In this document: positions 6,219 to 64,000 of the stretch, in pieces
Position numbering within the stretch: the stretch's first letter is position 1
How the letters are laid out: every line of letters starts with the position of its first letter
DNA from: Amoebophrya sp. A120
Taxonomy: Eukaryota > Protista > Dinoflagellata
Assembly (NCBI GenBank): GCA_905178155.1
Contig: CAJINV010000006.1
Location: 4,513,175-4,577,174 of the forward strand
Length of the DNA: 64,000 nt
Reading direction: 5' to 3'
Position numbers and translations under genes: made by a program
Notes under the pieces: generated by a model
Database searches by the model: none
The model's input: only the letters and a program-made list of their open reading frames with translations
Told to the model about the DNA's origin: nothing

Positions 6219-6367
6219 TAAAAGAAACCAACATATGTGATTCCAAACTGCAACCACATTCTGACCGATCCTTCCTGGAATCCTCAATCCACTGTGACTT
6301 GAACTCGCTGGAAGACCGCCTTGGTGAAGCCTTCGTAGCTCTCGGGGATTCGTACCATCCTTTTCAA

Positions 6368-7348: not shown

Positions 7349-7626
7349 GGCGACCGTCGACCGCCGGGCGGGGCTCACGTCGCCCCACCACGAGCTTCCC
7401 CAGGAGAAGCTGCTTCAGCAGGAAGTCGAAGTTCTACACCAGCCACGGTCGCAGCAGGCACGTCCGCAATGTCCGCGGCACCACAAGGCGACCGTCGACC
7501 GCCGGGCGGGGCTCACGTCGCCCCACCACGAGCTTCCCCAGGAGAAGCTGCTTCAGCAGGAAGTCGAAGTTCTACACCAGCCACGGTCGCAGCAGGCACG
7601 TCCGCAATGTCCGCGGCACCACAAGG
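7349..7626 (+). repeat. Perfect 138-bp tandem duplication (46 codons) in an Ala/Pro-rich exon
   Basis: ggcgaccgtcgaccgccggg...gcaccacaa occurs at 7349 and 7487. Confidence 0.95.
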
Positions 7627-35200: not shown

Positions 35201-38200
35201 GGGGCTTCGTTTCATAGTTGTTTTCCCGTAGGATTTTTGCATTACAAGTTTTCTCTCTCATGCAGCGAAATTTGTGTTGCTGAATTGGCTACAAATGTGT
35301 AACTGTAACACTTTTTTCGTGGGATAATAGACTACCGAAAGGTAGTACTGCCATGGGAGCTTCGTCGAGTAGCAGCAGTGTGGCAGATGATGCAAAGGTG
35401 GAAAAGACGCTGCTGTATAGGAGAAAGAATGACGATGATGAAGAAAACGGCGCTTCCGACATTTCGGAACAAGATGCCGATGGCATGGCGGCCGCAGTAG
35501 AGACAACTTCTGTGAGCAAAGACTTTCTTTTCCTGGAAGGTGATCATTTGATGACGGGGCCAGCGTCTTCCTCTGGAATTGCGTCGTCTTCCTCTATGTC
35601 CCCTTTTTCCAGCCTGATCCCCTCTGTAATTGGCAGCAAGGACAGCAGTTTGATGCCCAACAACTCCACCTCTGGATCAATCGCGATGGAGGTGAACTAC
35701 AGTGCGCCGGCCAGTCAACATGGTGCTGGTTCTGCGGCAATAGAAATATCTACGACTTCTCGATCCACATCAAAGGCAAGCAGCTGCGGTGGATCATTGT
35801 CAACCTCCCTGCGTCGAAGTGAACAGGTAGAAGTACAACCTGAGCAAGAACGCCCACCAGCGCGGTCGGGACCGGATTTTCTCTTCTACCAGGAAACCAC
35901 GCCAGCGATGTTTTTGAAAAACAAAAAGTCGCCAGCGGCTTCCACATACGGCGGTGCTTCATCATCAGGAGCTGTTGCTGTTTCTTCTTCTTCCTCTGCA
36001 ACACCTCTGGCGCCAGCAGTCCAACCTCTTCGCGACGGTATAGAAATTAGGCCGCAGGAACAGGTCGAGGAAGAGGGCTTTCAGGGTTTGCGCGCTCCCC
36101 CAACAAGTACTAGAACGCGACCACGGGTTAGTTTTAGTACTAACAGTCGAAAGAACTACGAGCTGTCAGCATCATGTTCAGGGACGCAGGCATCGCGGCG
36201 GGAGGACAGCTTTTTGTACTACGACGAGAATTCAGCCGAGGAACAAGATGTTGAGGACCGGGAAAGGAGCACAACTATCGTCCGAATTGATGTTGACGAT
36301 GAGGAAAGAAATCTCGAAGAGGACGACCACGACGAGAGCCTCAGCTCCGCCGCCGAGGAAAAAGCGGCGCAGAAAATCCAACATTTGATGAAGCGGCAAA
36401 CGGATTTGTTCGGGAAAAATACTAAAAACCAGTCTTCCTCCTCCACTTCCAGCAATAGAAACAGCAACTTCTTATTCGTGCAGAAACGGGATTTTGAGAA
36501 GCTCGAATCGGAGTTCATCACCAGTTCATCTGGTGGCAGTTTCTGTGGGGTGTCGTTCCTACAAGTAGAAAGAAACGACGACGATGAGGAAATGAGGGAC
36601 ATCACAGGAGTAGGAGATGAAAATCAACAGCAAGTGTCAACATCAGCCGCGACCACGAAGCGCTTAGCAGTGGTATTGAACAACATCCGACAGTTGAAAA
36701 AAGCGTTAATCCAGTCGAAGCACGACTCGAAGCTGAAGAAGCAACTCGAAGTCCGGTTGAAACTTTTACAAGAAAAGCAAGACAAGTACAAGAAGCAGAT
36801 TTTTGAATATCCTGAGTAAAAACGTACCCACACCAGAGTCAGGATGGGGATTTTGCAACACAAACCTAGGAGTTTTGTGAGTCACGCATGACAAGTTTCA
36901 GTCCGTAAGGTAGTGCAAGTTAGCAAGGAAAGCCGCATCACAAATCGATCTGCTGATCCTGTTTACAGCATTACAAGTTCCCAAACACGATTGAAAATGC
37001 CTGTCATGGGGTTGCGCATCACAAATGTTCCTGTCATGGCAAAGTCGCATGACAACTCTGGCGTGGGTACGTTTTTACTCAGGATATTGAATTTAAGAAT
37101 TTCATGGACGAAAAAATCGACCAGAAATTTAACCAGGAGGCGGAGCATATGAACTGCAAAAGCATCGCACTCGTAGTGATTGCAGATATGCATGACAAAC
37201 CTCCTTCCAAAGCTAAAACGGCATGACAAATTACATTTGTCATGCTAAGCTGATTTGTAATGCAATTTCTACTAGTACAAGCAGAAGCACGACTAGTACG
37301 GTGCTTTTGCAATCCATAGAGCATGAGAGACTGCAAAAGAAGTTTCTCCTCGCGAAAGCGGAGGAATTGCAGGAGTTTGAGAAGGAACTGCAGAAGAAAC
37401 AGAAAAAAATCATCGAGAACAAGCAGAAAGCGATGCTGGAAATCGAAAAGGAATCGAAGACGAAGGAAAAGTCATTAGCGAAAAAAAATCTCGAAACGCA
37501 TAAGGCGGAAATGCGGAATGAGATTTTGGAGCAGGAGGTGCAGAAAATGGAGAAGAGATTGTTTGAAGAGGAGGAGTTGCGGAAGAGAGACAGCGAAGAG
37601 AAACAAAAGGAGTTGGAAAAAGTGAAGGAGGATCTGGTAACCCAACAATCGTTAACCAACGCCTCGAAAAAGCAACTCGAGCAGATGACAAAAGATTTGC
37701 TGACCGCGGGGGGGACGAAGTTCCAGCACGACAAGATCGCGAACGAGAACAAGAATTTGAAACAGGAAGTGTCGCTGATGGAATCTCATTTGCAAGATGT
37801 GAAGAAAGACTTGGAAAAGGCGAAAAGACTTTTGAAGGAAGGGTTGCTGGTGAAAGAAGGTCAAAACGCCGGTGGGAGTCTGTCGTCAAAAAAATCGCTC
37901 CAAGAGCAAGTGCTGGACGAATTTGCACTGCTACAAGCGCACACCGACCAATATCGAAGAAGAAAACATTGCTAGTGTAACTTTGTGATGCGCAACATGC
38001 ATACTTCTTGCGGCTGTCATGCTAGAAATGCATTGCAAGGTCCACTCAAGCGCGTTTTCATGTACCATCTGCGCATGACAGGTTATTTTTGCTTTCATGC
38101 CAGACAGATTTGTAATGCTGTTCCTCCAAAAAAGTTGCACCTACACTCTTTTTTTCTTGGATAACCAACTGCACAGCTTCACCGACGATTTCGTGTTTGA

Positions 38201-39156
38201 TGTGGTGGTATGAAATGCAAATATGTCTGGGTCTCCTGGAAACTTGTAATGCTAAAAGTGAATCGTAGACGCACTGCAATGCGTAGCTACGCATGACAAA
38301 TTTTTTGGCTGCCATGTCTTACGTGTTCCGCCTGGCAAACTGCGTTTTTGCATGACAGGCAAGAGGGTCTTTTCGCGCCTATGCAAGACAGATTCTCGAG
38401 TCATGCCAGACAAGCATGACAAACGTGCACTCTTCCAGACCCAGACACTTTTGCAGTTCATAGGTGGTGAAGTCGCGACTGAAGCGGGAGACGAGGCAGC
38501 TGAAGATTATTGCAAGGAAAAATCCCCCCTCCCCATATCAAAACGGAATTTCTGATGCTGGATTTGTGTACACAAATCAGCTTTGTATTGCAGGAAGGCA
38601 GTGCGGCCAGATCCCCAGGCTAAGTAGGGGCGTATGGGTCTAGTTGTTCAGCATGACAAACGGCTCCCCTTTAGGCCCGACAGCGTGGCAAATCGCTTCC
38701 ATAATGGGGCGGAAGCTTCTGCCCTTGTCTTCTTGCAAGACAGATGTGATTTGTGGCCTCAAATCAGCAACACCAACACAAATCTTCGGGAGCATGCCCT
38801 TTCAATATGGGGAGGGGGGGCTTTTCATTTTGATAAAGATGCTCCAGGATTTGGTGGAATTAAGCGGGATCAACGAGGCGAGGAAATTGAAGATGCAAAC
38901 GACAACAAATAAAAATGACGGAACGACAACTGGAAGCAGGGGCGGTGAACTAGATCAGGATGGGAAAGACCGACCTCTTGGAGCTGTGGACGAAAGGGAC
39001 ACTTCTGGCACGAGGACCGGCCTTGAGCTGCAACAGACGCATGAAAAGACCTCCTCTTCTTTCTTTCCCAACGCAACAACCTTGTTCGAGCTGGATGCGT
39101 TTAATGAGGATTTTTTTCAGGTTTTGAAACAAACGAAACCGGCGATTGGGGCGTGA
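23214..39156 (+). CDS. Very large low-complexity/coiled-coil protein, 19 exons; no family recognised
   Basis: ATG 23214 to TGA 39156. Removing 18 TAT..ATA elements plus one TSD copy each gives a continuous frame with long E/K/Q/L heptad-like stretches and Ser-rich linkers. Confidence 0.85.
26789..27197. mobile_element. Introner, family A, with ~230-bp internal insert; stop-free in frame
   Basis: TSD GCTAT/GCCAT; element plus TSD = 414 nt, so the raw ORF reads through. Confidence 0.82.
27351..27620. mobile_element. Introner, family B
   Basis: TSD AGAAG; frame restored (IEK|QKF). Confidence 0.9.
27926..28899. mobile_element. Introner, family A, with ~800-bp nested GC-rich insert
   Basis: TSD GAAGA; insert ~27956-28760 lies between TATATA runs. 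Confidence 0.85.
30150..30310. mobile_element. Introner, family A
   Basis: TSD ACAAG/ACAAA. Confidence 0.88.
31251..31503. mobile_element. Introner, family B
   Basis: TSD GAGGA; similar to 1215-1473. Confidence 0.9.
31692..31942. mobile_element. Introner, family B, opposite orientation to 31251-31503
   Basis: TSD GATTT. Confidence 0.9.
32584..32920. mobile_element. Introner, family C
   Basis: TSD CAGAC. Confidence 0.88.
33017..33165. mobile_element. Introner, family A
   Basis: TSD GAGAG. Confidence 0.88.
33236..33497. mobile_element. Introner, family B
   Basis: TSD AAGAA. Confidence 0.88.
33566..33825. mobile_element. Introner, family B
   Basis: TSD GAAGT. Confidence 0.88.
34442..34752. 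mobile_element. Introner, family C
   Basis: TSD GTGGC. Confidence 0.9.
34811..35063. mobile_element. Introner, family B
   Basis: TSD ACTTC. Confidence 0.88.
35117..35326. mobile_element. Introner, family G
   Basis: tatcctgagaaaaaagcgttaca...tgtaacacttttttcgtgggata; TSD ATAGA. Confidence 0.88.
36808..37086. mobile_element. Introner, family D
   Basis: TSD TTGAA. Confidence 0.92.
37148..37318. mobile_element. Introner, family A
   Basis: TSD GAGCA. Confidence 0.85.
37952..38163. mobile_element. Introner, divergent TIR type
   Basis: tatcgaagaagaaaa...tttttttcttggata; TSD ACCAA. Confidence 0.8.
38209..38462. mobile_element. Introner, family B
   Basis: TSD GGTGG; empty site present in the duplicate at ~41065. 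Confidence 0.93.
38508..38835. mobile_element. Introner, family C
   Basis: TSD AAGAT; empty site present in the duplicate at ~41105. Confidence 0.93.
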
Positions 39157-40071
39157 TGATGATGATGATGAAAATTATGGGGATCATCATGTGGAGCACG
39201 ACCGCGGGGCAATTGCACAAAACGTGAGCTCTACAACTTGCACTAGTATAGCGGAACTTGTTCAAGATCAAGATGAACGTGATGAACTTGTGACTCTATC
39301 GTTCTGTAGGATTTATTTTCAATGTTACTTTTTACCAATAATCTCAGCTGCAGTAGTTCCTTGTTTTGGAACAGCAGTTGCGCTAGCAAGCCGTTCTTAA
39401 AGAAGCCATAATCGATAGTAGACATTGCCGAGCAGAGTCTGCAACTGCAAGGATCTTTTTTGTTGTAGAATTACAGTTAAATTTCAAAGTTAAAGTAGAC
39501 GACGAAGAGCACGAGGATGCCAGAAGAGGCTAAAACGCACAAGAGGATGCTAAAAATTATGTTTCGAGCGACTTTAGTTACGAAAGCGAGCCAGAAGTAC
39601 AAGTAGAGAAGTAACGATAGAACATGAACCGCAAAAGGCCAATGGCAAAATGCATGATGATGTCCTAGTGGGTCGACTACGTAGAAGTTGCTGTTCCGAT
39701 AATGATGATCATTTTTAACCACAAGCGATCATGGCAACTGGTGATACAGATCTGACAACTACTTCTGTTTACGTACTTAGCACTTTCTCGTCTCATCCAT
39801 CGCCTTTCGCGACACCACGCATGATTCACTTCTACAGCCGGCCAACTCGTTTTTGCTGCTTACATTTTTGACAAAATTACGAGCTGATGTACTATCGTGT
39901 AGAATTTATTCCAAACACCATATTAGACAACGGCCTAATTCGAATCTTTGGATGACTTATCGGCTTCTTGTCGCAGTAGAATAGCACCAGAGCAACCTTT
40001 TTTTCCTGTCTGTTTCCTGTCGTTTTAATATAGACTTCGAACAGAAATCTCTGCTCTCTTTTTCTCACAAA

Positions 40072-40408
40072 ATGGGCTACGTTCTTCGACGACACATGAG
40101 AGCCGCACACCTGAGCAAGAAAAATCCTGCGCCGCTCTATAATTGCTCGGTTGCCGGGTTCTTGATTGCAACTGCAGGTGCTTGTATTGCAGGAGCACTA
40201 GCAGCCTCGCATCACACGAGGACCTACACTGGCGAGAAAGCAGCAGAGGGAGCTACGAGGACCCACAGCCGCCTCCTTTCAGAAGAGCTACCCGGGGATG
40301 CGGACGCTGCGGCCGGTCCTGTCGTGTCCCCCGCCATGGTGGATCCACCTTTTCCAACAAGCGCGGAGAGTACAACATCTCCTACTTTCGCGGTAGGAAC
40401 AACGGGCG
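40072..40408 (+). pseudogene. Truncated 5' paralog of ORF 42574-45351
   Basis: MGYVLRRHMRAAHLSKK...ELPGDADAAAGPV matches MGYSFRRRMRAAHLSKK...ELPGDADAAAGPV, then breaks at the duplication junction. Confidence 0.8.
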
Positions 40409-41023
40409 ACCAACTGCACAGCTTCACCGACGATTTCGTGTTTTGCAGTGAGGCACTACAAGCAGAGCCTAAAGCTTGCGTGGGGGGGACGTTGGTGTAG
40501 GTGCTTAGCATAGCAGAGGCCTGCCAAGATGCCACCACAGCTCGTGGTGACACGAAATTCGCGACTTTTTTGGCTCCGTGTCACCGTCCCGTGTCACCAC
40601 TCGTGTCACCAACCCAAAAAGCTGCCCCGATGCCCTCCCACCCCCGCTTGATATCTGCCCAAATGGCCCCCAGATAGGCTTGGTGGCTGCCACAATGGAC
40701 CCCTGAATGCACGCGCAGCAGCCTGGAGTCAACATCTTCATGACGACTCCAGGCTGCATAACTGCATCTATTAAGGCTGTGGCAGAGGCTTTGCCTCTAC
40801 ATCAAAAGGTCAGGGCTAGCCGGCCCATCCTCCTCACGACTCTGACTACTTACAGTCAGAGAAGCGGCCTCCACTGGCTGAGAAAGGACAGGCGAAAGAA
40901 GCATCATCGCAGGCATTGAGACCTAGCACAAAGGCCGTCGCTGGGGGGGGTGCCAGAAATTCATATTGCTCGGCAGTCACCTGAAAGTCACGGACTGAAT
41001 TCCTAACGTCCATCCAAGCTGTA

Positions 41024-41665
41024 ACCAACTGCACAGCTTCACCGACGATTTCGTGTTTGATGTGGTGGTGAAGTCGCGACTGAAGCGAGAGACGAGGCAG
41101 CTGAAGATGCTCCAGGATTTGGTGGAATTGAGCGGGATAAACGAGGCGAGATATCAAATGTAAAAATGTCTGGGTCTGGAAAAATACGCGATTTGTCATG
41201 CAGCTTTTCCAAATGACCCATGAGGTCTGCAATGCAGGACCTGGCGTGACAGATTCTGTGCGAAGATCTCTCTCATGCCTATCTTGCATCAGAAACTCCC
41301 TCCCGACTTGGTCAAAAGTGGGCAACTTTTGGTAATCATGCAACACAGATTTTTGCATGCTTCAGATTTAGCATGACAAGTGGGATTCTTCCAGACATCC
41401 AGGGATTTTCGCATTTGATACGAGAAGTGTGAAAACCAAAACGACAACAAATAAGCACGGAACGACGACTGGAGATCAGGAGGACGGGATGAACAAAGAA
41501 CAAGTGGAAGACGCGGACCACACTTCTGGCACGACCCGTCTGGAACAACCGACCCGAATGGCGTCATCCTTTCTTCCCAACGCAACAACCTTGTTCGAGC
41601 TGGATGCGTTTAACGAGGATTTTTTTCAGGTTTTGAAACAAACGAAACCGGCGATTGGGGCGTGA
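41024..41665 (+). pseudogene. Duplicated 3' fragment of the coiled-coil gene with different intron content
   Basis: Same C-terminus PNATTLFELDAFNEDFFQVLKQTKPAIGA*; no upstream exons. Confidence 0.8.
41152..41420. mobile_element. Introner, family B, private to the duplicated copy
   Basis: TSD CGAGA; absent at the homologous site ~38880. Confidence 0.9.
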
Positions 41666-42573
41666 TGATGATGAAAATGGGGATCATGTGGAGCACCACG
41701 ACCGCGGGGCAATTGCAAAAAAGAACGTGAGCCCTTCATCTAATAAATTAGACTAGTATAGCGGAACTCCAAGAACTTGTGACCGTCGATCTGTAGGATT
41801 TTGGAATGTTACTTGTTTTTACCGATTATACTCTCCGCTGCAATAGTTCCTTGTTTTGGAACAGCAGTTGATGTGCTAGCAAGCCGTTCTTAAAGAAGCC
41901 ATAAAATAATCGATAGTAGACATTGCCGAGCAGGGTCTGCAACTGCAGCAAGGATCTTTTTGTAGAATTACAGTCAAAAGTCAAAGTAGACGACGACCAG
42001 CACGAGGATGCCAGAAGAAGCTAAAACGCACAAGAGGATGCTAAAAATGTTTCGAACGACTTTACTTACGAAAGCGAGCCAAAAGCAACGATAGAACATG
42101 AACCGCAAAAGGCCAATGGAAAAATGCATGATGATGTCCTAGTGGTTCGACTACGTAGAAGTAGCTGTTCCGATGTTGATGATCATTAGCCACAAGCGAT
42201 TATGACCGACAAGGCAACTGGTGATCCTGATCTGAAAACTACTCCTGTTTACTATACGTACTTAGCACTTTCTTGTCACATCTATCGCCTTTCGCGGCAC
42301 CACGCATGATTCACTTCTACAGCCGGTCAACTCGTTTTTTTCTGTTGCATTTTTGACAAAGTTACGAGCTGATGTATCGATCGTGTAAAATATTTCAAGC
42401 AACATATTGGACAACGGCATAATTCGAATCTTTGGATGACTTGTTGACTTCTTGTCGCAGTAGAATCAATAGCAAGAGCAACATAGACCACGAGCAGCCT
42501 TTTTTTCCTGTTTGTTTCCTGTTGTTTTAATATAGACGTCGAACAGAAATATCTGCTTTCTTTTTCTCACAAA

Positions 42574-45351
42574 ATGGGCTACTCTTTTCGACGACGCATG
42601 AGAGCCGCACACCTGAGCAAAAAACCTGCGCTCTACTGCTATGTTGTTGGATTCTTAATCTCAACTGGAGCTTGTATTGGAGGAGCACTAGGGGCCTCGG
42701 AGGACTACACCTACACGGGCACTAAGGTAGCGGGAACTCGTTCAGATGAGCTGCCCGGTGATGCAGACGCTGCGGCCGGTCCTGTTTTTTCCACTATGGA
42801 GCCACCCTTTCCAACAACAAGCGAGACGAGTACTACAACTATTTCCACTCCTTTCGGAGCGGTAGCAAGGCTTGGGTCCTCCTCAGGTTTTTCGGCTGCG
42901 TCTACTGCATTACCGGGCGCCGGGTCTTCACCTAATACCCCGGTTTTGCGGCGCGAAACCTCGATCACATCCACCGGGTCGTGGCAATATGAGGATGAGA
43001 GACATCTTCGGAGAGAAAATTTTTCCCTCGCAAGTGGAAGTGGAGGCGCAGCTGCAACTGCTGCTGCTACTGCCAGTCACCATGAGCAGCAACAAGAACA
43101 ACCGCAGGAACAACCCCACGATTCTCTGATCGAGGTGCTTCTCTGCAACTGGACTGGGTTAGTGGAAACGCCGTGCAGAAAATACGACGAGCCAAATAAC
43201 CCGGATCCGACTGTGCAAGATTTGAAAAATTGGCTGTTAAAGAACAGTGCGCCGGAAGAGTTCTTTCAACACCGTGTTCAACCTGCGTCGGCCGGCGTGG
43301 AAGGTAAAAATTGGCAACCGTCTTCTACCTCCGGAGCGTTGTGGTCAAAAAGACCTTTCTTCGACCCTGCAACCTGGCTTCCGTATTTCAACGGAACCGA
43401 GCCCGACATTCGGATCAGTAGTTCAAGCCGCCCGGAGCTCTACTGCTTGTCGGACGACGTGAAGGTGCAGGATCTTTACAAGGAGAAGCTGAAGCTGCGA
43501 TTGGAGACGCAAGCAAGACGTCCAGACCATTATGGCTATCAACACGGAGGGACGACGAGCGCAACCATGAAAAACATCAATGCGACCTTGTTACAACAAC
43601 CGGGAGCTCCTGAGCAAACAGTTGGTGGAACAAGGCAAAAAGGCAATTATGCGTCGGCAGCTCATCTTCTTCAACAGCGGCAAAAATTACAGAACGCAAC
43701 GTCTCAAGACCTGATGCTTGAGTACGACCTAGTGGAAAAAAAAGACGACGATATGCTACACTCACACCTATCCGGGTTTTTGAGATTTCTGCACGCCGAG
43801 GACGCGGTGGAGCGTGCAAATTTTATCCAGCGAGTGAAACAAGAGGCTGGGAAGATCTCCGGTGGAGGTGCTAGTACCGGTGAACCATTCGGTGGTGATC
43901 AGGATCACGCCGGACAAGGACAAGGAGTCGGCGTCGTGCCAGCAGCCTTAGCGGATAACCTGGTTTTCGGCGAGTCTCTGAAAGAAGACACTGGAGTGCA
44001 GCTCTGGGATTTTTACCAACGGGATTTGCGTGTAGATGAAGAAGCCGAGGATCTTGTTCTGGAGCGCCAGCGCACTAGAGACGCGGCCCATGATGTCGAG
44101 AAAGAGGATGGAAGAACGAGAAGGCGGCGCGTCTATACTGATTTCCGCGATAAGAAGGATACGTCAAAGCGGCGGACATCTGGTTCAACGCTGAGGACCC
44201 ACACCAGCACAAAACTGCCAACCAATAGGCGTCAAAAAGGCCGCGTTGCAATGAAAGACCGGAATCGGTCATCTCTTTTGAAAACGAGAACGCTACGTCT
44301 GCCGAGCGGCACTAAAGATGGCCTGGACGGGACTATAGCAAAGCTGGCTCGTAGTCGTAATTCCACGTCTTCGCACAAGAAGGGCGCTGTTGTTGTTCCA
44401 GACAAAATAAATGCAACCGACGTCGTACTAGCACCACCGGAACAACAACAAGCCGAAAAATCCATCCTGAAGATCCAGCGCGACCAAATTTTCACCCCCC
44501 AGCAAGACCCTACTTTGTACTTAACTTCGCCTTTCACGACGATGAGCGTGGGCCACGGGCTGGAGCCGGAGGTGGGGAACGCCGTGTTTCTCGCTGCGGC
44601 AAAGGAACTGCTTTTGTGGCAGATATTCGGGACAAAAGACGGTGGCCTGCTTTTAGGCGGCGGGGGCAGAGGGACAGCTAAAATGGGTCCTCGTGGAGCT
44701 GCTCCGAACCGTGACGCTGAAGATGATGTCACGCTTAGCACAGAGACCGTCTTCAACACTCCTGGCCGCAAGCTGTTTTCCGCGGCTCGAAATATGTTTG
44801 AGAATCAGGATGGAGGAGGCTCGAGAACTACATCTCGTGGCGGTGGAAATCCCAGTACAGATGACACTGCGGTGGAACAAGAAGGTGCTGTAGCTGACCA
44901 GCTTTCATCTGTGGTACACGCGGAGGACAGCGCACTCAAGCAAGTCCGCGCCACGCTGGAGTATCCGAGCAACGATGCTGATGTGGGCCAAGTGCAGCCA
45001 CATAAGGAACTTTCGAATGACGTGGTAAAGCTCGGCGACGACGTGTCGATTCGAGTGGAATATGAATTCGATAATACGAATAGCTTCTATCACGACCGGA
45101 TCTTCCAGACTTTCACTTTCCGGGACCACAGCAGAAGCCTGTCCTACGAACTAGAAGTCGTAGCAGTACAACAATCAGGAGAACCTTCAGACGTCGAGAG
45201 ACTGCGTCCAGGGGAAGTAGTCGACGCGGGTGCAGCTACACACGCGACAGGTACTACAGCGGGAGCCGCGTCATCATCGTCTTTACTTCCCTTGCCAATT
45301 TTTGTGCCCTGCTCGCACTGGAGAACGGAGGCTGTCACTGTGAGCATCTAG
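42574..45351 (+). CDS. Intronless 925-aa hypothetical protein with an N-terminal hydrophobic segment (signal or anchor)
   Basis: Uninterrupted ORF; ALYCYVVGFLISTGACIGGALGA near the N-terminus; the N-terminus is conserved in the paralog at 40072. Confidence 0.8.
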   Translation: MGYSFRRRMRAAHLSKKPALYCYVVGFLISTGACIGGALGASEDYTYTGTKVAGTRSDELPGDADAAAGPVFSTMEPPFPTTSETSTTTISTPFGAVARLGSSSGFSAASTALPGAGSSPNTPVLRRETSITSTGSWQYEDERHLRRENFSLASGSGGAAATAAATASHHEQQQEQPQEQPHDSLIEVLLCNWTGLVETPCRKYDEPNNPDPTVQDLKNWLLKNSAPEEFFQHRVQPASAGVEGKNWQPSSTSGALWSKRPFFDPATWLPYFNGTEPDIRISSSSRPELYCLSDDVKVQDLYKEKLKLRLETQARRPDHYGYQHGGTTSATMKNINATLLQQPGAPEQTVGGTRQKGNYASAAHLLQQRQKLQNATSQDLMLEYDLVEKKDDDMLHSHLSGFLRFLHAEDAVERANFIQRVKQEAGKISGGGASTGEPFGGDQDHAGQGQGVGVVPAALADNLVFGESLKEDTGVQLWDFYQRDLRVDEEAEDLVLERQRTRDAAHDVEKEDGRTRRRRVYTDFRDKKDTSKRRTSGSTLRTHTSTKLPTNRRQKGRVAMKDRNRSSLLKTRTLRLPSGTKDGLDGTIAKLARSRNSTSSHKKGAVVVPDKINATDVVLAPPEQQQAEKSILKIQRDQIFTPQQDPTLYLTSPFTTMSVGHGLEPEVGNAVFLAAAKELLLWQIFGTKDGGLLLGGGGRGTAKMGPRGAAPNRDAEDDVTLSTETVFNTPGRKLFSAARNMFENQDGGGSRTTSRGGGNPSTDDTAVEQEGAVADQLSSVVHAEDSALKQVRATLEYPSNDADVGQVQPHKELSNDVVKLGDDVSIRVEYEFDNTNSFYHDRIFQTFTFRDHSRSLSYELEVVAVQQSGEPSDVERLRPGEVVDAGAATHATGTTAGAASSSSLLPLPIFVPCSHWRTEAVTVSI

Positions 45352-46402: not shown

Positions 46403-49400
46403 ATGTCGACTGTCCGTGGAGGTGCAACATCCGGTTCATTTGTGCCGCGAAGGGACGACTACCCCCGCCACAAGAGCTGCCCGTGGTCCACCGCGCGGCC
46501 ATCATGCTTGTCGTTTTCATCTTCTCCTACCAGTTTCTTTGCTTTGACTTTGTTCACCGTCTACCTTCGCTCCGCTTTTCATGTTTTACCGGTAGCCGCC
46601 TTCGGTTGCTTTTCCGATTACAGCATGTCATGGTGTATATGCATTGCAAAAGTATCGTACTCGTATGAATGCATGACAAATTTCCTCAGCATGAGAGATA
46701 AAATTTGTAATGCGGATTTACCTTAAAAAGAAGATTTGTGATGCATGACAATGCCTACGAGTGCAGTGCGATACTTTTGCGCAGGATAGTGCAACAACCA
46801 CACAGAGGAGTCTTGCGTTCACGACTACACGTTTTCCGTTTCTCACTTCCAACGGAAACTGAACAAGTACTACCAGAAAAACCACCGACCACCGCTGCTC
46901 GAGGCGTATTTTTTGATAAAAACCCCGCAACCCTACCAAGCGGAGTTTTTGGATGCGGATTGCGCGCCGCCGTTGATCATGGCGCTGTTGCTCGTGTGCG
47001 AAGCGAGGATGGAGTACGACAGTGGACAAGCGGTGCAGTTGTTTGAATTGGCGATGAACTACTTGCAGAACCGGGTTTCACCAGAACAAGCGTACATTCT
47101 CACCAACACCGACACGTGGCCGTTTAAGAAAGCGGTTGCGAGAATTCAGACCATGATGACGGAGCTGGAACAGCGCAAATTGAAGATCGAGGAAAAACTC
47201 GCGGTGCAAAAACAACCAAGAATAAAGGTCGATTTCGTGATTTCCCACTGCAAAGAGCAAGATTTGAATTGGCTCGTCGAGGATTTGACCCCGATGCTTG
47301 TGACCGGGCAGTATCAAATGCAAATATGTCTGGGTCTGGTGGAAGGTTGGAACTTGTGATGCTAACTTTGGACTCTAAAAAAATCTGTATTGCGTGACCA
47401 GCAAGAGGAGTCTAGTTTGTGCTACGCGGGGAGGGCATTTGTCATGCGGAGTAGGCATCAGGAAGCCCGCTACAGATCTGTGATGCTAGGCCGTGCATTA
47501 CAGACATCCTGGGTCATGCAAAATATGCATGACAAACCCTGCAACATTCCAGACCCAGACGCTTTTGCATTTTATAGCCAGGCGAGGGAGACGATTCAAC
47601 CGAAGCTGCTCGTGTACGAAAAGTGTCACCAGGTGACGGATGTCGGGAAGGTTTTTGAGCAATGGAACAACTACCAGAAGAGCAAGGGAAATGTGCAGAA
47701 AATCGCAACAGAGAATCCGTTTGACCTTGATCCGAGCAGGAATCCGGTGCAAGGTAGTTACGAGATCGTCCCGACGCCTGACCCGTCCTTTGTTGTATCA
47801 AATGCAAATATGTCTGGGTCTGGAAGAATGTAAGTTTGTCATGCTTATCTTTCACGACTCCTAACTTTGTGATGCATAAGCAGGATGCTGAGAGTCTTTT
47901 GCCTGTCATGCAAAAACTACGCAGTTTGCCATGCAGAAAACGGAACACATAGCAGCTCAAGAACTTGTCATGCTTGGGTGCGTATTGCAGTGCTTCCACC
48001 ATTCCCAAACCAGCATCACAAGTTTCCAGACCCAGACATATTTGCAGTTGATATGTTGCCCGGGGAGACGAATGCTCGGCGTACTTGAAACACATCCGGA
48101 ATTCCTTCGGAGGAGGAGGAGGTTTTGCCCACGGTGACGAAATGAAGTCGAACACGTTTGCCGACTTTACGTTTTTTCTCCACTCGGACCCCTGGGACCA
48201 CATGCACAAGGAATTTATGAGAGTGGACAACTAGTATTTTTGCCACCTGAAGATGAAGTCCCCGTCATGTTGTGCGGAAGAGGATACTAAGACCTAGGCA
48301 CTTATCTAAAGGATCATCATGCACCAGGAGCTCGGCTCCCTGATGAAAACAAACCGAAACTCACGCCCGCGATTGTAGCTCTGGGAAAGATGAAAGTGAT
48401 GAACGAATTTGAAGAAAAACGTATCGCAAGAAAAAAGTGTTACAGTTACACATTGTGTTGCAGGCCAAGCATGACAGACAAGCTCTGCCATGCGGGATAT
48501 GCATAGGAGCCTCGTTTCATAGGTGTTTTCCCGGAGGATTTCTGCATTACAAGTTTTCTCTCTCATGCAGAGAAATTTGTGTTGCTGAATTCACTACAAA
48601 TGTTTAACTGTAACACTTTTTTCGGTGGATAAAACGGAACATCTTATTAGTACAGCAAGAAGCGGATTTGGAAAAGTTTGAATTGAAGTATAACCCGCTC
48701 AGGTGTTACAATCTCAAACGTTACAATAGAATCTAGAATTTGTGTTGCAAAATGCGCAACATCTGGCCTACTCCCACAGGAGCGCGCATGACAAGTTTCG
48801 GAGCTCCAAACCCCATGAGAATCTGCCGAAATTTGTATTGCGAAAAGCCCGATTCTCTGTTTGGTACTCATGCTGTTCATGCAACACAAATTTCACATTC
48901 TACTGTAACGTTTGAGATTTACTGTAATACGGATCACCGTGTCCCTGAAAACAAACCGAAACTCACGCCCGCGATTGTCTGGTAACCAAATGCGTGCGCG
49001 CGCGCGCGCAGAGGTGGGCGCGCGCGCTCTGCGCGCTTGCGATATTGCTTAGCAAACGCAGCGCGAAGGCAGTTGCCGTTACCATATAGGGCAACCGCCG
49101 GGAGGCGTGAAGGTCAGGGAAATGGCCAGAAATGAAGCGGGAGAAGGGAAAAAAAGCGGACCAGATGGGAAAATGGCCAGGAGGTCAAAAATGTCGCAAA
49201 AATGGCAGAAACCAAGCGGGAGAAGGTGAAAAAAGAGCATTTTTGCGGTTTGGCCCACTTGATATCTGAAAAAGAGACGGACTATTTTTTGCTCCGCCCG
49301 GTGGCCAGCTGCGTTGGAGAAGCAGGCCCGCGACCTGTCCGGAAGCCTTGGGCCGCTTCGTAACTGGAAAAAGTTGGAAAAAAATGACAAAAAATTGCTT

Positions 49401-52047
49401 CATAACGTGGGTGGAAGCAATCGTCGGATTTTGTCCAGATCACCCGGGCCACTTTGAAAATGAAAAAAGATGAGAAATTGCGCAAAAGCGCAATCCTTCC
49501 GCAGGCTTCAAAACTGCCAGTCAGATGCGGGCGGTAAAAATGTCCAGGTCGCCGGGGCCACTTGGAAAATAGAAAAAGACCACTTGGAAAATAGAAAAAA
49601 GACTTGGAAAATAGAAAAAGATGAGTTTTCTAAAGGCTCCCTGAAAACAAACCGAAACTCACGCCCGCGATTGATAGAAGTCGCAATACCATAACCCAAG
49701 AAATTTCTCATGCGTTCATGCTGTACAAAGCGCCGCTCTACCATGAATGACTCAGCAACACAAATTCGCCGCGCGCTTCCAGACCCAGACAAATTTTTGC
49801 ATTTGATTCGCGTTCAACCCCCACGACTGGACGCACTATCAAAAGGAAAAATCCCCCCTCCGCGTCCCCATATCAAAAATCGGAAATCTGTGTTGCAGAT
49901 TTGTGGTCACACATCAGCTTTCTCATGCTAGAAGGCAGAAGAGGCGGACTGTAGTGCTGGGTGGCTTGGGAAAGCCTTGCATCCTCAGCATGACATGAGG
50001 CAGCTGGAAGTGGGAAACAGCATGACAAATCGCCTGCAATTAAGGCCGCGACTGCGTCGCTTGGCCTTCTAGCAATACAAGGCGAAGACTTGTGTACTCA
50101 AATACAGCATCACAAGTTCCCCCTGAAAAAAACCGAAACTCACGCCCGCGATTCCAGTTCTGGAAACTTGTATTGCAGACACGGCTCCTGCTCCTCGCGG
50201 GCCTAAATATAAGATATAGCGTTTAAATTTCTAACTTGTACGACCAACGAAGGGGAATAATGCTAATGTGGCACGTCGAGTTCTTCTTGTCTTCTCTTCC
50301 ATACACTTCATGTCCGTGATTCTGTCCACCATCGCCGCAAAAACTTTCGACAGCGAGAAAAACGGATTCTTACACCTCAACGGCCCGCGACACGTCCGAA
50401 CGCTGACGCCCTGCCTCCAGGCGGTGTCCGAGAAGATTTTCGGTTTCCCAGTGAAAAACTCCGTCGGGCCGTACTGTTATTCGAAGTAAAAACATCCCCA
50501 CCCCAGAGTTGTCATGCAAATCTGCATGCCAAAAAAGTTTCTCTTGCGAAGCCCCATGACGAGAAGCTTTTTCTAGTCGTGTTTTGGGATTTGTGATGCT
50601 AGAAATAGCGTGATATGATAGATCTGTGATGCTGCTGAACTAGCTGAACAGGATCACACTACGAGGGCGAACTTGTCATGCGAAACAACCAAAGTTGGCT
50701 GATTTGTCTAGCAGATATTCCCATCTTCAACACTCTGGTACTATGGGGACGCTTTTACTCAGGATAACTGTTGTGCCCAGTTCATGGTGACGAAGGAGCG
50801 CATTCTGAAGAGGCCGCAAAGCTTCTACAGCAACATGCTAACCATGGTAAATGGGACCATGACTGAAGATTTGTGTACCAGTAGCAAAACCGCGCGGTCG
50901 ACGCATTGCTACGGAATGGAATTCCTCTGGCACCTGGTGTTTTCCGACTTATCTAACGAGGAACTCCAGTATCTGAACGAACAGGGATCTTTAGTGCAGC
51001 AGCAACTGCATATGACAGTGCACAACTCCCCCTGCTCCCCCTCATTTGTAATGCAAACTGTCAAGAAATCAAGTCGCTGCCTTGTGGCACTGTTTGCATG
51101 ACAAAGTCCGGAACAAACCCAAACAGCACTACATTAGAGCCATACATTTGTCATGCATAGACTTCATGCTTGCTCGCGTGTGTATTGCTGCTCATGCCAT
51201 ACAAATGAAGGGGAGCAGCGGGAGTTGTGCACTCTCATACTGCAAAAAAACGAGTTACAACTGACTGACGAAGTCGAGCAACAACAGGCGATGATTGACT
51301 CGGTGTTCGACCCCCCATTATGCATTGCAAATATGTCTAGGTATGGGAACTACTTGTGATGCTGAACAGTGGATGGTGAAAACACTTTCGAATAGTACAG
51401 CCAAGCATGACAAGTTTGCAGAACGCCTTCTGATGTTGCACAGTTCGCATGACAGCCTCCTGCAGCGTTTTTGTAAATGTAATGACAAAAAAGGCCGCTG
51501 GGGGTCATGCAATACAGAATCCACATGAATGTAAGACCAGCATTGCAAGCTGCAACTTTCCAGACCCAGACATAGTTGCACTTCATATCAATTACGCCCG
51601 GACGACTGGTCGTTGCCGATTCAGTTCCGGCTCAAGTTTGGGGTGGAGCACGCGAAAAAGGATTGGAATGACGTCGTTTTATCGCCCAACGTCCCGAAAA
51701 AAATCGTGACGAGACAAGACTGGAATGGGAACGAATTTGTCTACACACTCGGCGGAGAGCAGCACGTCGCGAGCTTGAGCGGGAAAGGCAACAGCAGTCC
51801 GGCGGGAAGCGCGAGTGGGATCCAGAATCAAGCGCAACTACAGCAACCACAACATCAAGCCTTGGGATCATCCGGATCTGCAGCTTCTTTGCCGCCAATA
51901 TCGGTTAGGCCAGTAAGTAGTGACACAACTACTAGCGCAGGAACTGGAACTACAGCTTCCGTTGGTGCTTCATCTTCTTTGAGTGCTGCGCAACAGCAAC
52001 TGAGAAACGCGAATGCCGCTGCTAGTATGTTGAACCAACAGTTCTGA
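46403..52047 (+). CDS. DUF3431-like protein, probably secreted or type II membrane; 8 exons
   Basis: Spliced motifs FVISHCKEQDLNWL, RGDECSAYLKHI, ADFTFFLHSDP, YCCAQFMVTKERILKRPQSFY and YGMEFLWHLVF match my recollection of the DUF3431 pattern. Hydrophobic N-terminal segment; 7 introners. Confidence 0.8.
46638..46788. mobile_element. Introner, family A
   Basis: TSD GTGTA/GTGCA. Confidence 0.87.
47312..47576. mobile_element. Introner, family B
   Basis: TSD GGCAG/GCCAG. Confidence 0.87.
47796..48053. mobile_element. Introner, family B
   Basis: TSD TGTTG. Confidence 0.9.
48334..50153 (+). repeat. Four ~35-bp direct repeats (ccctgaaaacaaaccgaaactcacgcccgcgatt) separated by unique spacers of ~566, ~657 and ~444 bp
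   Basis: Copies at 48334-48375, 48942-48977, 49635-49673 and 50121-50153. Confidence 0.92.
48422..48631. mobile_element. Introner, family G, inside a captured exon fragment
   Basis: TSD AAACG; similar to 35117-35326. Confidence 0.9.
50478..50766. mobile_element. Introner, family D
   Basis: TSD ACTGT; frame restored (PYC|CAQ). Confidence 0.88.
51011..51239. mobile_element. Introner, family F
   Basis: tatgacagtgcacaactccc...gggagttgtgcactctcata; TSD CTGCA. Confidence 0.9.
51319..51587. mobile_element. Introner, family B
   Basis: TSD CCCAT/TCAAT. Confidence 0.8.
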
Positions 52048-55900: not shown

Positions 55901-58900
55901 CTCCATAAGAGGCGTTTGAACCGCCTCTCATGGAGATGCGCATTACAAATGAGAAACGCCGCGTTTCTAGTCGTGTTTTGGAATTTGTAATGCTGTAACC
56001 AGGATAAGCAGACGGATTTGTGATTCACGTTTGTCCTTGCTAGCCCGCACTACGCTAGTACAGACTGCAACTTGTAATGCGTGAGGCCCGAAAGCGAAGC
56101 TGCTAGGTTTGTGTTGCAAAATCCCCACTCTGGGGTGGGGATGTTTTTGCAGAGGATATACGCAAGGAAACACGGCTACGCGTTGCGGCTACACACCGAG
56201 CCGCCCTTATCGCACGAAAAAACTGTTTCACTGTGAACTTGTAATGCAGAAACTGCATCTCAGAAGTGTTTGTGTTTGTCTTGCTACACATGCAAGACTG
56301 GGAGTTTTTAGCTGCGTTTTCCCTTAGGAACCTCGCATGGCAAGTTTTGTGTGTCATGTGTAACAAACTTGTGATGCAGATCTTGCAAAATCATCACAGT
56401 GAAACAGTTTTTTCATACGATAACCCCTGCTGGGCGGGAACGTGCAGATTCAGCACGCGAAGCTAGCGACCGTGAACCACTACGTATAGAAGCTTCTAGT
56501 TTGCCATGCGTATTATATCACCAAAAGAAAGTTTTTGTCATGCGTACTTGACATGACAATCATTTACAACCCAAAAAATCATTCCAGATCCGCAGCGGTG
56601 AATTTGATTGGGTCGTGTGGCTCGATTGCGACAGTTATCAACTGCAAAAATGTCTGGGTCTGGAAGATCGTAACTTGTCGTGCTAGATCTGAATCCTGTA
56701 AAAGTCTGTGTTGCGTGATTACCAAAAGCTGTCCAGTTTTGACCTAATCGAGAGGCAGTTGCTCATGCAGGATAGGCATGGCAAAGACCTCACAAAGTCT
56801 GTCATGCTAGGTCCCGCATTCAGGAACTCGTGGGTCATGGAAGTCCTGCCATTACAAGTTTGCACTGTTCCAGACCCAGACACTTTTGCATTTGATAACA
56901 GTTTAATCATGAACCTGGACCACACCATTGATTCCATCATTTACCGGGCCGCCGGAAAATGGTCCTCGAACAACTTTTATCACGTGCAAATAAAGTATCG
57001 TACTCGTATAAATGCATTACAACTTTCCTTAGCATGAGAAAAAAAGATTTGTAATGCTGATTTACCTTGAGAAAAAGATTTGTAATGCATGACTGCATAC
57101 GAGTACGATACTTTTGCACAGGATAACTTTGCGGGCGAGTGGAAGGACACCTGGGACCCGAACGTGATCGAGATCAAAGTGAACGAGAACGTATGCAGTG
57201 CAAAAGCATCGTGATCGTATAAATGCATTACAAGTTTCCAGGAAACTTCCTCAGCATGAGAAATAAAATTTGTAATGCTGGTTGACCTCAAGGAAAAGAC
57301 TTGTAATGCATGATTGGAATACGAGTACGATACTTTTGCACAGGATAAAACGAGGTGACCGCGAAAGCGATCCAGTTTGGTACCGCGACCGGCCACATGG
57401 AGGGGAAAACGTTGGTGATGGAGTTTGAAAACGCCATGGAGCCGTTAGAAGGACAGCTGCAGCAGACGGAAGAAGGGGATATCATTCAGTGGAGCAACGG
57501 AGCGGTTTGGCACAGAACCCGGAATTATCTACTGCAAATATGTCTGGGTCTGGAACATGGCAACTTGTCATGCCAAATCTGAATCATGTAAAGATCTGTG
57601 TTGCAGGATTACCAAAAGCTGGCCACTTTTGACCAAGTTGGCCGGGGGTTTCTCATGCAGAATAGGCATGATAGAGGTGAGTAAGTCATGTCTCTAGAGA
57701 CTGGAGGTCTCACAGACGGCGCAGAAATCCATGCTAGAAGACAAGATTGAGATAGAGAAAATGAGGTCTCACAGAATCTGTCATGCTAGGTCCTGCATTT
57801 TTGCAGGCCTCATGCGTCATGTAACACCTGCATGACAAGTTTGCATCTTTCCAGACCCAGACATATTTGCAATGCATAGGAAAATCGAGCCTTGCTTGAA
57901 CCCAGCGGACTGTCCGGAATTGAAAGGCTTGGACGATAGCATTGACTTGCTGATAACAGAAGAATATCCATTGCAAAAGTTTCACCATCGGGCGCGTAGT
58001 ACTCATGGCGATGTCGCATGACAAATAGAAGTTTCTTACCTGAATCAGCATTGCAAACGTCATTTTTGCTTGCCGCGAATGAAAAATTGGTGATGCAAGG
58101 TGCTTATACTAGTACGACACGGATGTACAACTTTTGCGTTCCATAAAGAAGGCTGGGGACTCAGCAGCGCCAACTGGATGGTATCGATACATTATAGCGA
58201 TTTGGTTATTGGCACTTTCATGCAAGAGCGAGCTGATGCTAGAAAGCACTTACTCGTAGCTTGGGCTAGCTAGCCGTCCGTGGACTTGTCCTCACTGTTT
58301 CTTGGGTACGATTACGTATAGATCGATTCACTTCTACGCGATATTCATCCTTGGAGAAAACATGGGAGTTCTTCGCGAATTTTGGGAACGATAAAAACAA
58401 AATTTTGGAATTTCGCGGATTTTTGAAAGTGGTAAAAATAAAATTTGAAAGTTTCGTGGGTTTCTAGTAGCTTTCATTTCAGATTGGGCGTGCACGAGCA
58501 TGGTTTTGTTATGAATGTGTCTACCCAAGAACTCCTTACGGCTCAGATTCTTATCCCTGAGCCCTCGCCTCGAACATTGTCATTTGTCAAGGTGGCAATT
58601 AAAATTAAAATTTTGAAGTTTCGCGGATTTGCCAGCTGGCCTCCAGCTTGGCCAGGCAAAATCGCCTACTTTTTCGACAAGTGAAATCGACCATAGCGTG
58701 GAGGGAGCGAACGCGCGAAGGGTATTTTGGTCCAGCCATGCTAGTCCAGCTGGCCAGGCAAAATCGTCTATTTTTTCGACACGTCAAATCGGCCATAGCC
58801 TCGGGGGAACGAAAACGCGCGCGCTATTTTGGCCCGGCCGAGCTGGCCCAGCTTGGCCAGGCAAAATCGTCTCCTTTTTCGACACGCCAAATCGACCATA

Positions 58901-61900
58901 GCCTCGGGGGAACGAAAACGCGCGCGCTATTTTGGCCCGGCCGACCTGGCCCAGCTTGGCCAGGCAAAATCGTCTCCTTTTTCGACACGCCAAATCGACC
59001 ATAGCCTCGGGGGAACGAAAACGCGCGCGCTATTTTGGCCCGGCCGAGCTGGTCCAGCTTGGCCAGGCAAAGTCGTCTACTTTTTCGACACGCCAAATCG
59101 ACCATAGCCTCGGGGGAACGAAAACGCGCGCGCTATTTTGGCCCGGCCGACCTGGCCCAGCTTGGCCAGGCAAAATCGTCTCCTTTTTCGACACGCCAAA
59201 TCGACCATAGCCTCGGGGGAACGAAAACGCGCGCGCTATTTTGGCCCGGCCGAGCTGGCCCAGCTTGGCCAGGCAAAGTCGTCTACTTTTTCGACACGTC
59301 AAATCGACCATAGCCTCGGGGGAACGAAAACGCGCGCGCTATTTTGGCCCGGCCGAGCTGGCCCAGCTTGGCCAGGCAAAGTCGTCTACTTTTTCGACAC
59401 GTCAAATCGACCATAGCCTCGGGGGAACGAAAACGCGCGCGCTATTTTGGCCCGGCCGAGCTGGCCCAGCTTGGCCAGGCAAAATCGTCTACTTTTTCGA
59501 CACGTCAAATCGACCATAGCCTCGAGGGAACGAAAACGCGCGCACTATTTTGGCCCGGCCGAGCTGGCCCAGCTTGGCCAGGCAAAATCAGCTACTTTTT
59601 CGACACGTGAAATCGATCATAGCCTCGGGGGAACGAAAACGCGCGCGCTATTTTGGCCCGGCCGAGATAGCCCAGCTTGGCCAGGCAAAATCGTCTACTT
59701 TTTCGACACGTCAAATCGACCATAGCGCCGCGGGAGCGAACGCGCGGAGGACATTTTGGCCCGGCCAAGCTGGCCTCCAGCTGGCGAGGCAAAGTCGGCT
59801 ACTTTTTGGGCGGGCGAAATCGACCATAGCCTCGAGGGAATGAAAACGCGGAGGACATTTTGGCCCGGCCAAGTTGGACTCCAGCTGGCTAGGCAAAGTC
59901 GGCTACTTTTTGGGCGGGTGAAGTCGACCATAGCGCCGCGGGAGCGAACGCGCGGGGGGCATTTCGGCCCGGCCAAGCTGGACTCCAGCTGGCGAGGCAA
60001 AGTCGGCTACTTTTTGGGTGGGCGAAATCGACCATAGCCTCGAGGGAACGAAAACGCGGAAGACATTTTGGCCCGGCCAAATTGGACTCCAGCGAGCTGG
60101 CTAGGCAAAGTGGGCTACTTTTTGGGCGGGTGAAGTCGACCATAGCGCCGCGGGAGCGAACGCGCGGAGGACATTTTGGCCCGGCTCAGCTGGCCAGCAA
60201 GAGTCGGCTCGGCCCAGCTGGGCCAGGTAAAGTCGCCAACTTTTTCTTGGGCGGTGGCGAAATGGGCCATAGCGGCGAGTTCGACGACAACAAAACATAA
60301 CGAAACTGACAGGTTCGTCGTTCTCATTGGACCATCAATTTCCTGGATCAAGCGCTCGACGTTGCCCATGTCCAGATCCTATGTATTGCAAAAGTACCGT
60401 ACTACCGTACTAGCATATAGTGATCAATTCGGTCAGCATCAGGAATGGAATTTGTAATGCGGACGCAGCTTAGGAAAGGGATTTGTAATGCATAAATACA
60501 ATTGCTACGAGTGCGACACTTTTGCACACCATAGATCCCGCTTTTTGGTGACCAAGATGCGATCATTTACCTGGTCATGAACGACCAAACTATGAGAGTG
60601 CACAACCCCCCCTCCCGGTCCCGCTCATTTCCATTTGCCATGCAAAATCCCAAATCTACCTCTTGTATGTTAGCACTTTTTGCATGACAGATTCCGACAG
60701 CCAAAACAGCACTACAATCCTCCAGGAATTTGTCATGCAAAAGCTGCAGCTTTGCCAGCGCTTGCGTTGCTGTTCATGCAACACAACTGAGGGGGACGAG
60801 GGGGATTTGTGCACTCTCATACAAACCCTGCGAGGTTTAACCGACGTATTGGCCGACGATGCGGAGCAGATCACTTCCTTAAAGGAAAGCGAGCAACTCC
60901 CGGACCCTTTGGACAGTCACGTGCGCGTGATCCCGCAACGGGAACTGAATGCGTATGATCTATGGCGTTCTCATCAAATGTTAAACTCTCAGCTAATACA
61001 TGGCTTGTCATGCAAAAACACTATCACCCTTCACACGATCAAGCCTTCTTCGAATGACAACTTCTCGACGCGCTACATAGAACTACAATACGCCGCCCCA
61101 AATCTGTAATGCAAAAGTCGCAATCTTCCTCCACTCCTTTGCCTTTCACTTTTGCCATTGTTGCATTACAAATTTATGTAGCAGCTGAGAATCAATGTAA
61201 CGTTTGAGAACTCGATATGATCATCTAAACGCGTACACCATGGACGTGGATTATGAAAGTGCACAACTCCCCCTCCCCCTCGTTTGTCATGCAAAATCCC
61301 AAATCCACTTGCTGCCCTGTAGCACTGGTGATTACGTGTATGGGAGTCAGCATGGTGATTACGTGTATGGGAGTCAGCATACACGTAGAGTTGTGATCTC
61401 CTTCGGGTCGGTTTTCTTCTTGTGTCGCTTTCTTTTGTGCCACCGGCGTTCTTCAACAAGAAGACTTTCTCGCGCCTGATTGTCTGGTATGCATGTGAGA
61501 ATTTGTATGTCGATTTGGTTGCACGGGACTGAGACTGAACAGACGGCGAGCGTTTTCAGTTTTGACGTGTATCGGAACTGACACTACAGTGGCCAGCTCG
61601 AATAGAGCTTGTTCGTTCCTTGTGGCTTTCGTGTTCCCCTGTCTGTGCCATGGGTCTATGAGAGACTTCGACGTAGAAGTAGTAACGGTAGTTTTGTAAT
61701 CCACGTATTTTTCGCGTGGTTGTCCTAGGTGAGCTAGCACCCGTGTCCGTGGACAACCATCTAAGACGCGGAAAATAGCGAGCACTTTAGTTTTTGGCTT
61801 TCTCTGGTTTGGTCATGATTTTTGGACCGCTTCTTAGGGTGGTCGAGAAAGCCAGACTAAAGACGGCACGGGCAGAAGTGGATCGGTTTAGAAGCGCGCT

Positions 61901-63300: not shown

Positions 63301-64000
63301 AAGCATTCTCGCTCCTTATGTGGTAGTTGAGCTTCTACTTTTTTATCACCCCGGCGGTGTTGAGCATTAATTTCGTAGTAAGTAAAAAAAAAAACTTCGA
63401 TAAAGCTGCATCGATCGTCAATACGTACGTACAGTGTCTGTTGATTTTACAATCGTTACTGCCGAGATTCTTTTTATGTTCTTGTCACGTACTAGTACTC
63501 GTGATTTTTTCAAAATGATGCGCATTTCATGTCGTGAAATATATAGGTACATAGATGAACCGTATCTGCAAAAATTGCTATAGTAGAAGCTGCTGTAGCT
63601 GCATGAGAAACTACTGAACTTTTAGGTCCAGCATAAAAGCGCCGGCGCTGCGTGGATCTTTCAAAACATCCCCTCAAAGTGCTTTGTTTGTATGTAGTGA
63701 GGTCACCGAACGGTTCTAACCGGGGAGTTTTTTTGCCACCTCCCGTGAAAAACGACCGGCAGTTTTGAAGCGGGCGGAAGTGTTTTTTGACAGAAAAAAT
63801 TTTCAATTGTCAAGCGGCCGGGGCGTTGCCATCAAACAAGCCCGGTTGAAAACTATCGATTCGCACTTGATAAAACGACGCAGGGGAGCCGGCAAAAGGG
63901 GCGCCCTTCTGAGGCGCCCGCCGCCTTGGTTTCTGGCGATTTGGGGCGCCCAAAAAGGGGCGCGCAAAAAACGCGCCCAAAATCAGAACAGCGAAACAGC

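Follow-up and report, generated by a model that had tools for sequence, protein, structure and literature searches.

An array of repeats and inserts in Amoebophrya sp. A120 raises the question of how a fragment of one gene, carrying introners that the resident gene does not have, came to lie within another gene. The window, the whole stretch of 64,000 nucleotides that was analysed, holds three inserts (spacers) between four direct repeats with a 31-bp core, in the putative intron of a DUF3431 gene (E = 3.8e-9 in exon 50769–50999). DUF3431 was the sole match in a Pfam scan of nine exon pieces, and Rfam returned two hits, both far below threshold. In the parts listed here, A and B denote two gene versions set out further below, and X1 is a short-read run.

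48216–50308, plus strand: putative host intron in the DUF3431 gene, a TATGAGAGTG-type introner, about 313 bp long and decayed (the frame stays open across the join; TIR degenerate).
48334–48385, plus strand: repeat 1, with its core at 48344–48374, an extra TGA on the 5′ side and 10 bp similar to what follows repeat 4.
48386–48421, plus strand: spacer 1, exon piece a, attributed to version B of the coiled-coil gene X; 34/36 nt match 30945–30980, with two synonymous differences; joins to repeat 1 and introner G on a single X1 contig (depth 47.7).
48422–48636, unstranded: spacer 1, complete introner G (48422–48631) and the second AAACG duplication; TAT...ATA ends, TIR and 5-bp TSD.
48637–48688, plus strand: spacer 1, exon piece b; 50/52 nt match 30981–31032, with two synonymous differences.
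48689–48941, unstranded: spacer 1, E-like introner with its 3′ end cut by repeat 2; 40-bp arms, 90% complementary; an X1 contig (depth 49.8) crosses into repeat 2.
48942–48977, plus strand: repeat 2, identical to repeat 3 over 36/36 nt.
48978–49637, unstranded: spacer 2, the end of a multicopy genomic repeat (X1 depth) with a strong terminal hairpin (z −3.84 for 48978–49110).
49638–49673, plus strand: repeat 3; an X1 contig (depth 44.9) runs from it into spacer 3.
49674–50120, plus strand: spacer 3, comprising the 3′ part of an introner, an exon piece (49807–49836, FAFNPHDWTH) and the 5′ part of a second introner (sequence comparison).
50121–50163, plus strand: repeat 4, with one C deleted; a 425-bp X1 contig (depth 40.6) spans it.
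30945–31032, plus strand: the gene X exon of the resident version A, introner-free (sequence comparison and X1 contigs).
62704–62733, plus strand: resident exon matching spacer 3, introner-free (sequence comparison).

Joined, the two exon pieces of spacer 1 match the resident exon at 84/88 nt and encode the same residue at 29/29 codons (KMKVMNEFEEKRNILLVQQEADLEKFELK), which confirms the 88-nt exon copy with four synonymous differences reported in an earlier, sequence-only reading of this DNA. All four changes are transitions (GAG>GAA twice, CGA>CGG and TTC>TTT). Under neutral drift of a copied exon, four synonymous changes out of four would be expected with p = 0.0006–0.016, the range being set by transition bias; dS for the spacer is about 0.12–0.18 (confidence interval 0.04–0.42). 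The complete family G introner with the TSD AAACG and the E-like element from 48689, both described in that reading, were recovered, and its claim that neither lies in the resident exon was borne out by a 2,400-bp X1 contig with 0 differences across 30700–31275 (depth about 45; 45.3). The exon piece of spacer 3 matches 62704–62733 at 29/30 nt with one synonymous change, and both of its cut introners are absent from the resident site.

The window is rich in elements of 130–340 bp, marked by inverted TAT...ATA ends and short duplications, which resemble the introners described for Amoebophrya in the accessible text of PMC7789003. In a census that admitted only elements with a perfect duplication, the duplication was 5 bp long in 42/45 elements. 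Introner G has the features of the Amoebophrya type, with TIRs starting TAT and the direct repeat AAACG at both exon borders, and its removal as a predicted intron restores the 29-codon frame. It is repeated in the genome, with 91.6% identity to a second copy at 35117–35326, an X1 depth of about 32,000 at 48534 and 7/197 nt differences (3.5%) from an estuary contig of the same family. The E-like element (48689 to about 48941) stands behind TGAAG and has terminal inverted repeats, of which the 3′ one is degenerate; the last TIR bases and a second TGAAG are missing. Elsewhere in the window, introner copies at 18133–18411 and 36808–37086 are 97.8% identical, pointing to recent transposition, and gene X introners at 26788–27198 and 27927–28902 apparently contain nested insertions, one of them GC-rich with 13-bp repeats. 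RNA run X17 gave 198 reads, every one a partial fit, and RNA run X6 gave 0 reads on 48200–48440; 0 reads from the estuary runs X9 and X10 were placed on the same interval. Beside the array, 50275–50479 is identical over 205 nt to an estuary metagenome contig (X9, depth 2.7).

A structure of this kind might arise as an assembly or library artefact, or from a mixed culture merged in one contig; the inserts have sizes like those of library fragments, and X1 may be the window's source sample. We find this scarcely credible, because four array joints and the joint of version A to its anchor lie on short-read contigs at single-copy depth and a second allele of gene X or gene Y was not seen at depth. 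Querying X1 with 48200–48440 listed seven contigs, in which the host intron runs into repeat 1 at depth 43 and repeat 1, exon and introner G are unbroken. Joints between repeat 1 and spacer 1, spacer 1 and repeat 2, repeat 3 and spacer 3, and spacer 3 and repeat 4 all have depths of 40–50, and a contig on the repeat core has a depth of 117.5, corresponding to about three copies. Neither joint of spacer 2 is represented in the seven contigs listed, from which a filter can drop contigs. Genes X and Y have depths of 48–56 in introner-free bins, as expected for single copies.

The same data bear on whether the donor survives intact. Among the X1 contigs listed, none has the array repeat flanked by sequence from elsewhere, and exon piece a occurs on the array and resident contigs with no third, in a listing whose filter may miss a diverged paralog. 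Together with the single-copy depth of the joints, the absence of a third exon contig from those listed gives no indication of an artefact or an intact paralog. An intact paralog bearing these introners, the case that the sequence-only reading had set against itself, was not found in X1, a source-like run; these tests are based on contigs of that run, which is possibly the window's own sample and hence no independent individual. Searches for relatives of gene X confirmed 0/85 candidates in a protein collection and 0/94 pattern hits in metagenome contigs, and 0/35 candidates in the protein collection had a B-type gene X end, each a weak blank.

A masked self-comparison of the window revealed two versions of one segment of about 2.2 kb, each running from the gene X 3′ end across intergenic DNA into the beginning of gene Y.

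38164–40408, plus strand: version A, with the gene X 3′ end (introners at 38209 and 38508), intergenic DNA and the first 112 codons of a truncated gene Y, in an open frame.
40409–41058, plus strand: A/B junction, a 35-bp direct repeat (40409–40443 = 41024–41058, 35/35 nt) around about 580 bp of filler.
41024–42870, plus strand: version B, with the gene X 3′ end (41024–41665), intergenic DNA and the start of an intact gene Y (42574–45351); frames open.

Version A is supported by an X1 contig (39616–40438; 0 differences, depth 40) that spans the joint to the anchor. The intergenic parts of A and B differ by 100/856 substitutions, or 11.7% (95% confidence interval 9.6–14.0%), and the gene X ends by three synonymous and 0 non-synonymous changes in 41 conserved codons, with one of each in a further 30 or so codons. 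Since both cut halves have open frames, they appear to be two long-separated functional versions that were joined recently. The sequence-only reading had proposed that the donor was functional and had diverged from the resident gene, perhaps as 'another haplotype', and the 3′ end of version B at 41024–41665 supports this; that reading had missed this end, 7 kb upstream of the array, its junction with the resident version, which is built like the array, and the introner differences that run both ways there. The divergence of spacer 1 (4/29 codons with synonymous and 0 with non-synonymous changes) fits that of the B end (four synonymous and one non-synonymous in about 71 codons; Fisher p = 0.22), and the agreement of the 11.7% intergenic divergence with spacer dS counts for version B as the donor. 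We lean towards the view that spacer 1 survives from the 5′ part of version B, now lost, and that template-switching repair copied it while one cell contained both A and B.

The versions also differ in their introners. Version B does not have the introners of A at 38209 and 38508 and has one of its own at 41152–41420 that is absent from A; with four in the spacers, 7/7 comparable sites differ, in both directions. Because the differences are reciprocal, and because families are strain-specific in the accessible text of PMC7789003, they are most simply explained by independent gains in each version. Introner loss before capture may also have occurred: introner G lies 3.5% from its family contig, against a split of about 6% per lineage. 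An apparent sorting of introner subfamilies to the left and right of 41 kb was seen on the plus strand only and disappeared when both strands were used, when 28/53 nearest neighbours lay on the same side of the junction (27.4 expected, p = 0.49). This lack of sorting counts against a hybrid reading.

A and B could instead be paralogs of one lineage: 32 kb or more, reaching from gene X to the 62.7-kb gene, would have been duplicated long ago, in tandem or segmentally. Both copies would have stayed functional to 12% divergence until a recent deletion running from Y(A) to X(B) collapsed the pair, with fragments of what was deleted copied into the junction and the array. This history, which we regard as possible but unlikely, gives the same order of parts, makes X(B) the source of spacer 1 and the removed copy of the 62.7-kb gene that of spacer 3, and needs no mating. 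It does require five or more duplicate genes to have been long under purifying selection, and the accessible text of PMC7789003 describes low duplication, strong synteny and few conserved tandem duplicates (185–206) in the genus.

The A/B junction and the array share a build, a direct repeat of about 35 bp followed by an insert of about 0.5 kb. Across both loci the repeat-to-repeat distances are 615, 602, 696 and 482 bp, and each of four inserts (447–661 bp) is preceded by a re-copied anchor of about 35 bp. In the filler of the junction, 40439–40541 is introner interior and 40542–41023 has no placed source. The former (103 nt) is 93% identical to 32665–32766, within the gene X introner at 32584, and this match scores 170 against at most 39 for other family members in the window. 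It is likely, by sequence comparison, to be version B's orthologous copy of that introner, entered through the microhomology TGTTT at 40439; this is the one junction where clear microhomology was seen, the flanks of the other donors being lost. Spacers 1 and 3 and the filler at 40439 thus have in common that they resemble local resident DNA yet differ from it. Repeat edges in the array are ragged, with small fillers, and the four flanking 24-mers of the repeat core were found 4 times against 0.00 expected (100 shuffles). A 14-bp match between the repeat 3 joint and 34803–34816 was judged to be chance.

Such regularity might suggest a dedicated, integrase-like system that, much as in CRISPR adaptation, archives transposon-rich DNA and doubles a 35-bp target with every insertion. 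Four near-identical repeats of 31–36 bp, units of 482–696 bp and mobile DNA in every insert would suit it, but the two anchors are unrelated, one being plain exon DNA, and the edges are ragged. The repeat has no hairpin (z +0.5, +0.7 and −0.45) and was not seen elsewhere in X1 or, with 0 matches in each, in viral and metagenome contigs. An integrase of this kind is very improbable here.

Spacer 2 reaches an X1 depth of 2,073 at 49203 and 49301, compared with about 45 for single-copy DNA, and is present in estuary runs X9 and X10; an estuary contig differs from it at 7 of about 495 nt and ends at most 3 nt from its left edge. A 27-bp reverse match to spacer 2 (89%) at 63754–63780 begins repeat-like DNA that runs past the window end. 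With spacer 2 and the filler 40542–41023 unplaced, the homologues of the other inserts lie at −17 kb, +13 kb and −7.8 kb, and donor orientation is kept in 3/3 identified inserts. That both spacer donors fall in one 64-kb window has a chance of about 4e-7 (assuming a 100-Mb genome), so the capture was evidently local.

The array is, on its sequence, far younger than the exon divergence. Its repeat cores (4 × 31 nt) have 0 substitutions and one deletion (copy 4), and the copied exons have 0 non-synonymous and five synonymous differences when compared with the residents; if all change is modelled as following capture, the likelihood is 29–2,186 times lower than for an already-diverged donor. This bears on the suggestion in the sequence-only reading that the copy preserves an ancestral state, the resident genes having precisely lost four introners while gaining synonymous changes. 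Long introner-free resident exons (30.3–31.25 kb and 62.6–63.3 kb) and a single target copy at the empty sites, as precise loss would leave, speak for it; the age of the array and the likelihood ratio disfavour intron loss after capture, and two introners of A that are absent from B show differences running both ways. We consider this ancestral-state history highly improbable.

Local donors and purely synonymous change could also be had without a single catastrophe if the array formed in cis in lineage or haplotype B, with gene X still intact, and its flanks were replaced later by recombination or introgression; spacer 3 would in that case be B-type and the 62.7-kb gene A-type. A second A/B boundary would then be required at 50.3–62.6 kb, where a second diverged duplication was not found, and the anchor-plus-filler build common to junction and array would become a coincidence or a general repair habit. 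We think this sequence of events improbable.

Under the reading we prefer, template-switching repair between A and B, a cell would have held chromosomes from two lineages about 12% apart, which recombined out of register near 40.4–41.0 kb. A nascent strand would have restarted repeatedly at one anchor, left that template about 35 nt on, copied homologous or repeat sequence in the vicinity over about 0.5 kb and gone back to the anchor template; error-prone break repair of this type would have put spacer 1 into the DUF3431 intron. The left part of version B would have been lost afterwards, which would leave the inserts as its only record. The re-copied anchor and kept donor orientation would favour replication over fragment ligation. 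For MM-BIR, the accessible parts of PMC7347108 and PMC13065848 describe chains of short templated insertions from local donors, with synthesis going back to the template it had left; clear microhomology at a single junction and an anchor held so closely to 35 bp at two loci, a regularity beyond that of these accounts, count against the proposed mechanism. Because an intact version B chromosome was not found in any collection searched, we infer the hybrid origin from one window. The few tandem duplicates and strong synteny of the genus favour hybrids. So do co-occurring cryptic species that share hosts (PMC7018713), and the same study reports low gene flow between ribotypes, which speaks against them; the accessible part of PMC13693241 cites a spore type expressing meiotic genes, in favour of hybrids, with gamete fusion not observed, which counts against them, and that of PMC12130899 gives further context. 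A capture route of fixed geometry, with about 35 bp re-copied and about 0.5 kb inserted (4/4 units) whenever diverged chromosomes meet, is a more doubtful proposal; if it were true, the genome would hold many small archives of partner DNA, recording hybridisation and introner turnover in a group whose sexual cycle is not known to have been observed.

The window contains other repeats and duplications. At 10047–11075 an older 55-bp direct repeat (87%) encloses about 920 bp of GC-rich DNA, which may be an anchor-plus-insert unit that has aged or else a small mobile element, and a near-exact 37-bp repeat outside introners recurs 5.7 kb apart (2581–2617 and 8319–8354). Between exon-like pieces, 58634–60195 is a 103-bp satellite (15 copies, 89% matches) and a candidate second boundary. 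There is also a perfect 138-bp tandem duplication of coding-like DNA (7349–7626), an element of about 870 bp with 80-bp inverted ends (86%) at 5347–6220, and short coding similarities (74–91%) at 4009–4241 and 14947–15456 that suggest older paralogous genes.

CRISPR spacers are tens of bases long, uniform in length and exact at their edges. The array shares with CRISPR arrays the repeat–spacer–repeat look, short near-identical direct repeats and a repeat length within range; its spacers are ten times longer (447–661 bp) and ragged at the edges, it is intronic, and its anchor is local sequence. Reading it as a CRISPR array is ruled out on spacer length and edges.

As in the chromosome restructuring that accompanies genome elimination in hybrids (accessible text of PMC4461816), pieces of a lost partner's genome would have been kept after hybridisation, although here what is visible is a local event. 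If a hybrid was involved, the locus would be sequence evidence for recombination between syndinian lineages about 12% apart, in which gamete fusion has never been observed. The introners match those of PMC7789003, in its accessible text, in TAT inverted repeats, short direct repeats at exon borders, many families and lineage-specific positions; that study compares two distant strains, whereas here nearly all introner positions differ between versions only about 12% apart. Micromonas likewise differs in introner content among close relatives, which the accessible text of PMC4540971 proposes to impede recombination; here, by contrast, a single genome contains both states, in captured fragments and where the junction is out of register. 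Existing resequencing data could address introner gain versus loss over short times, and whether introner differences drive recombination out of register.

A literature search, with most subscription journals and supplements outside its coverage, found no description of such a structure; its anchor-plus-insert signature offers a simple target for genome-wide searches. The three array inserts and the two-part filler at 40.4 kb, with donors that cluster locally, constitute tandem templated insertion. As far as the accessible parts of PMC7347108 and PMC13065848 go, they share with tandem short template (TST) jumps and MM-BIR the tandem short inserts, local donors, narrow size range, template return and, probably, little microhomology. 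They differ in insert length (447–661 bp against medians of 150–199 bp), in the 35-bp anchor before each insert, in being germline-fixed in a protist and in drawing on a diverged second version of the region. The feature is real, and it belongs to a known mechanistic class in a new setting.
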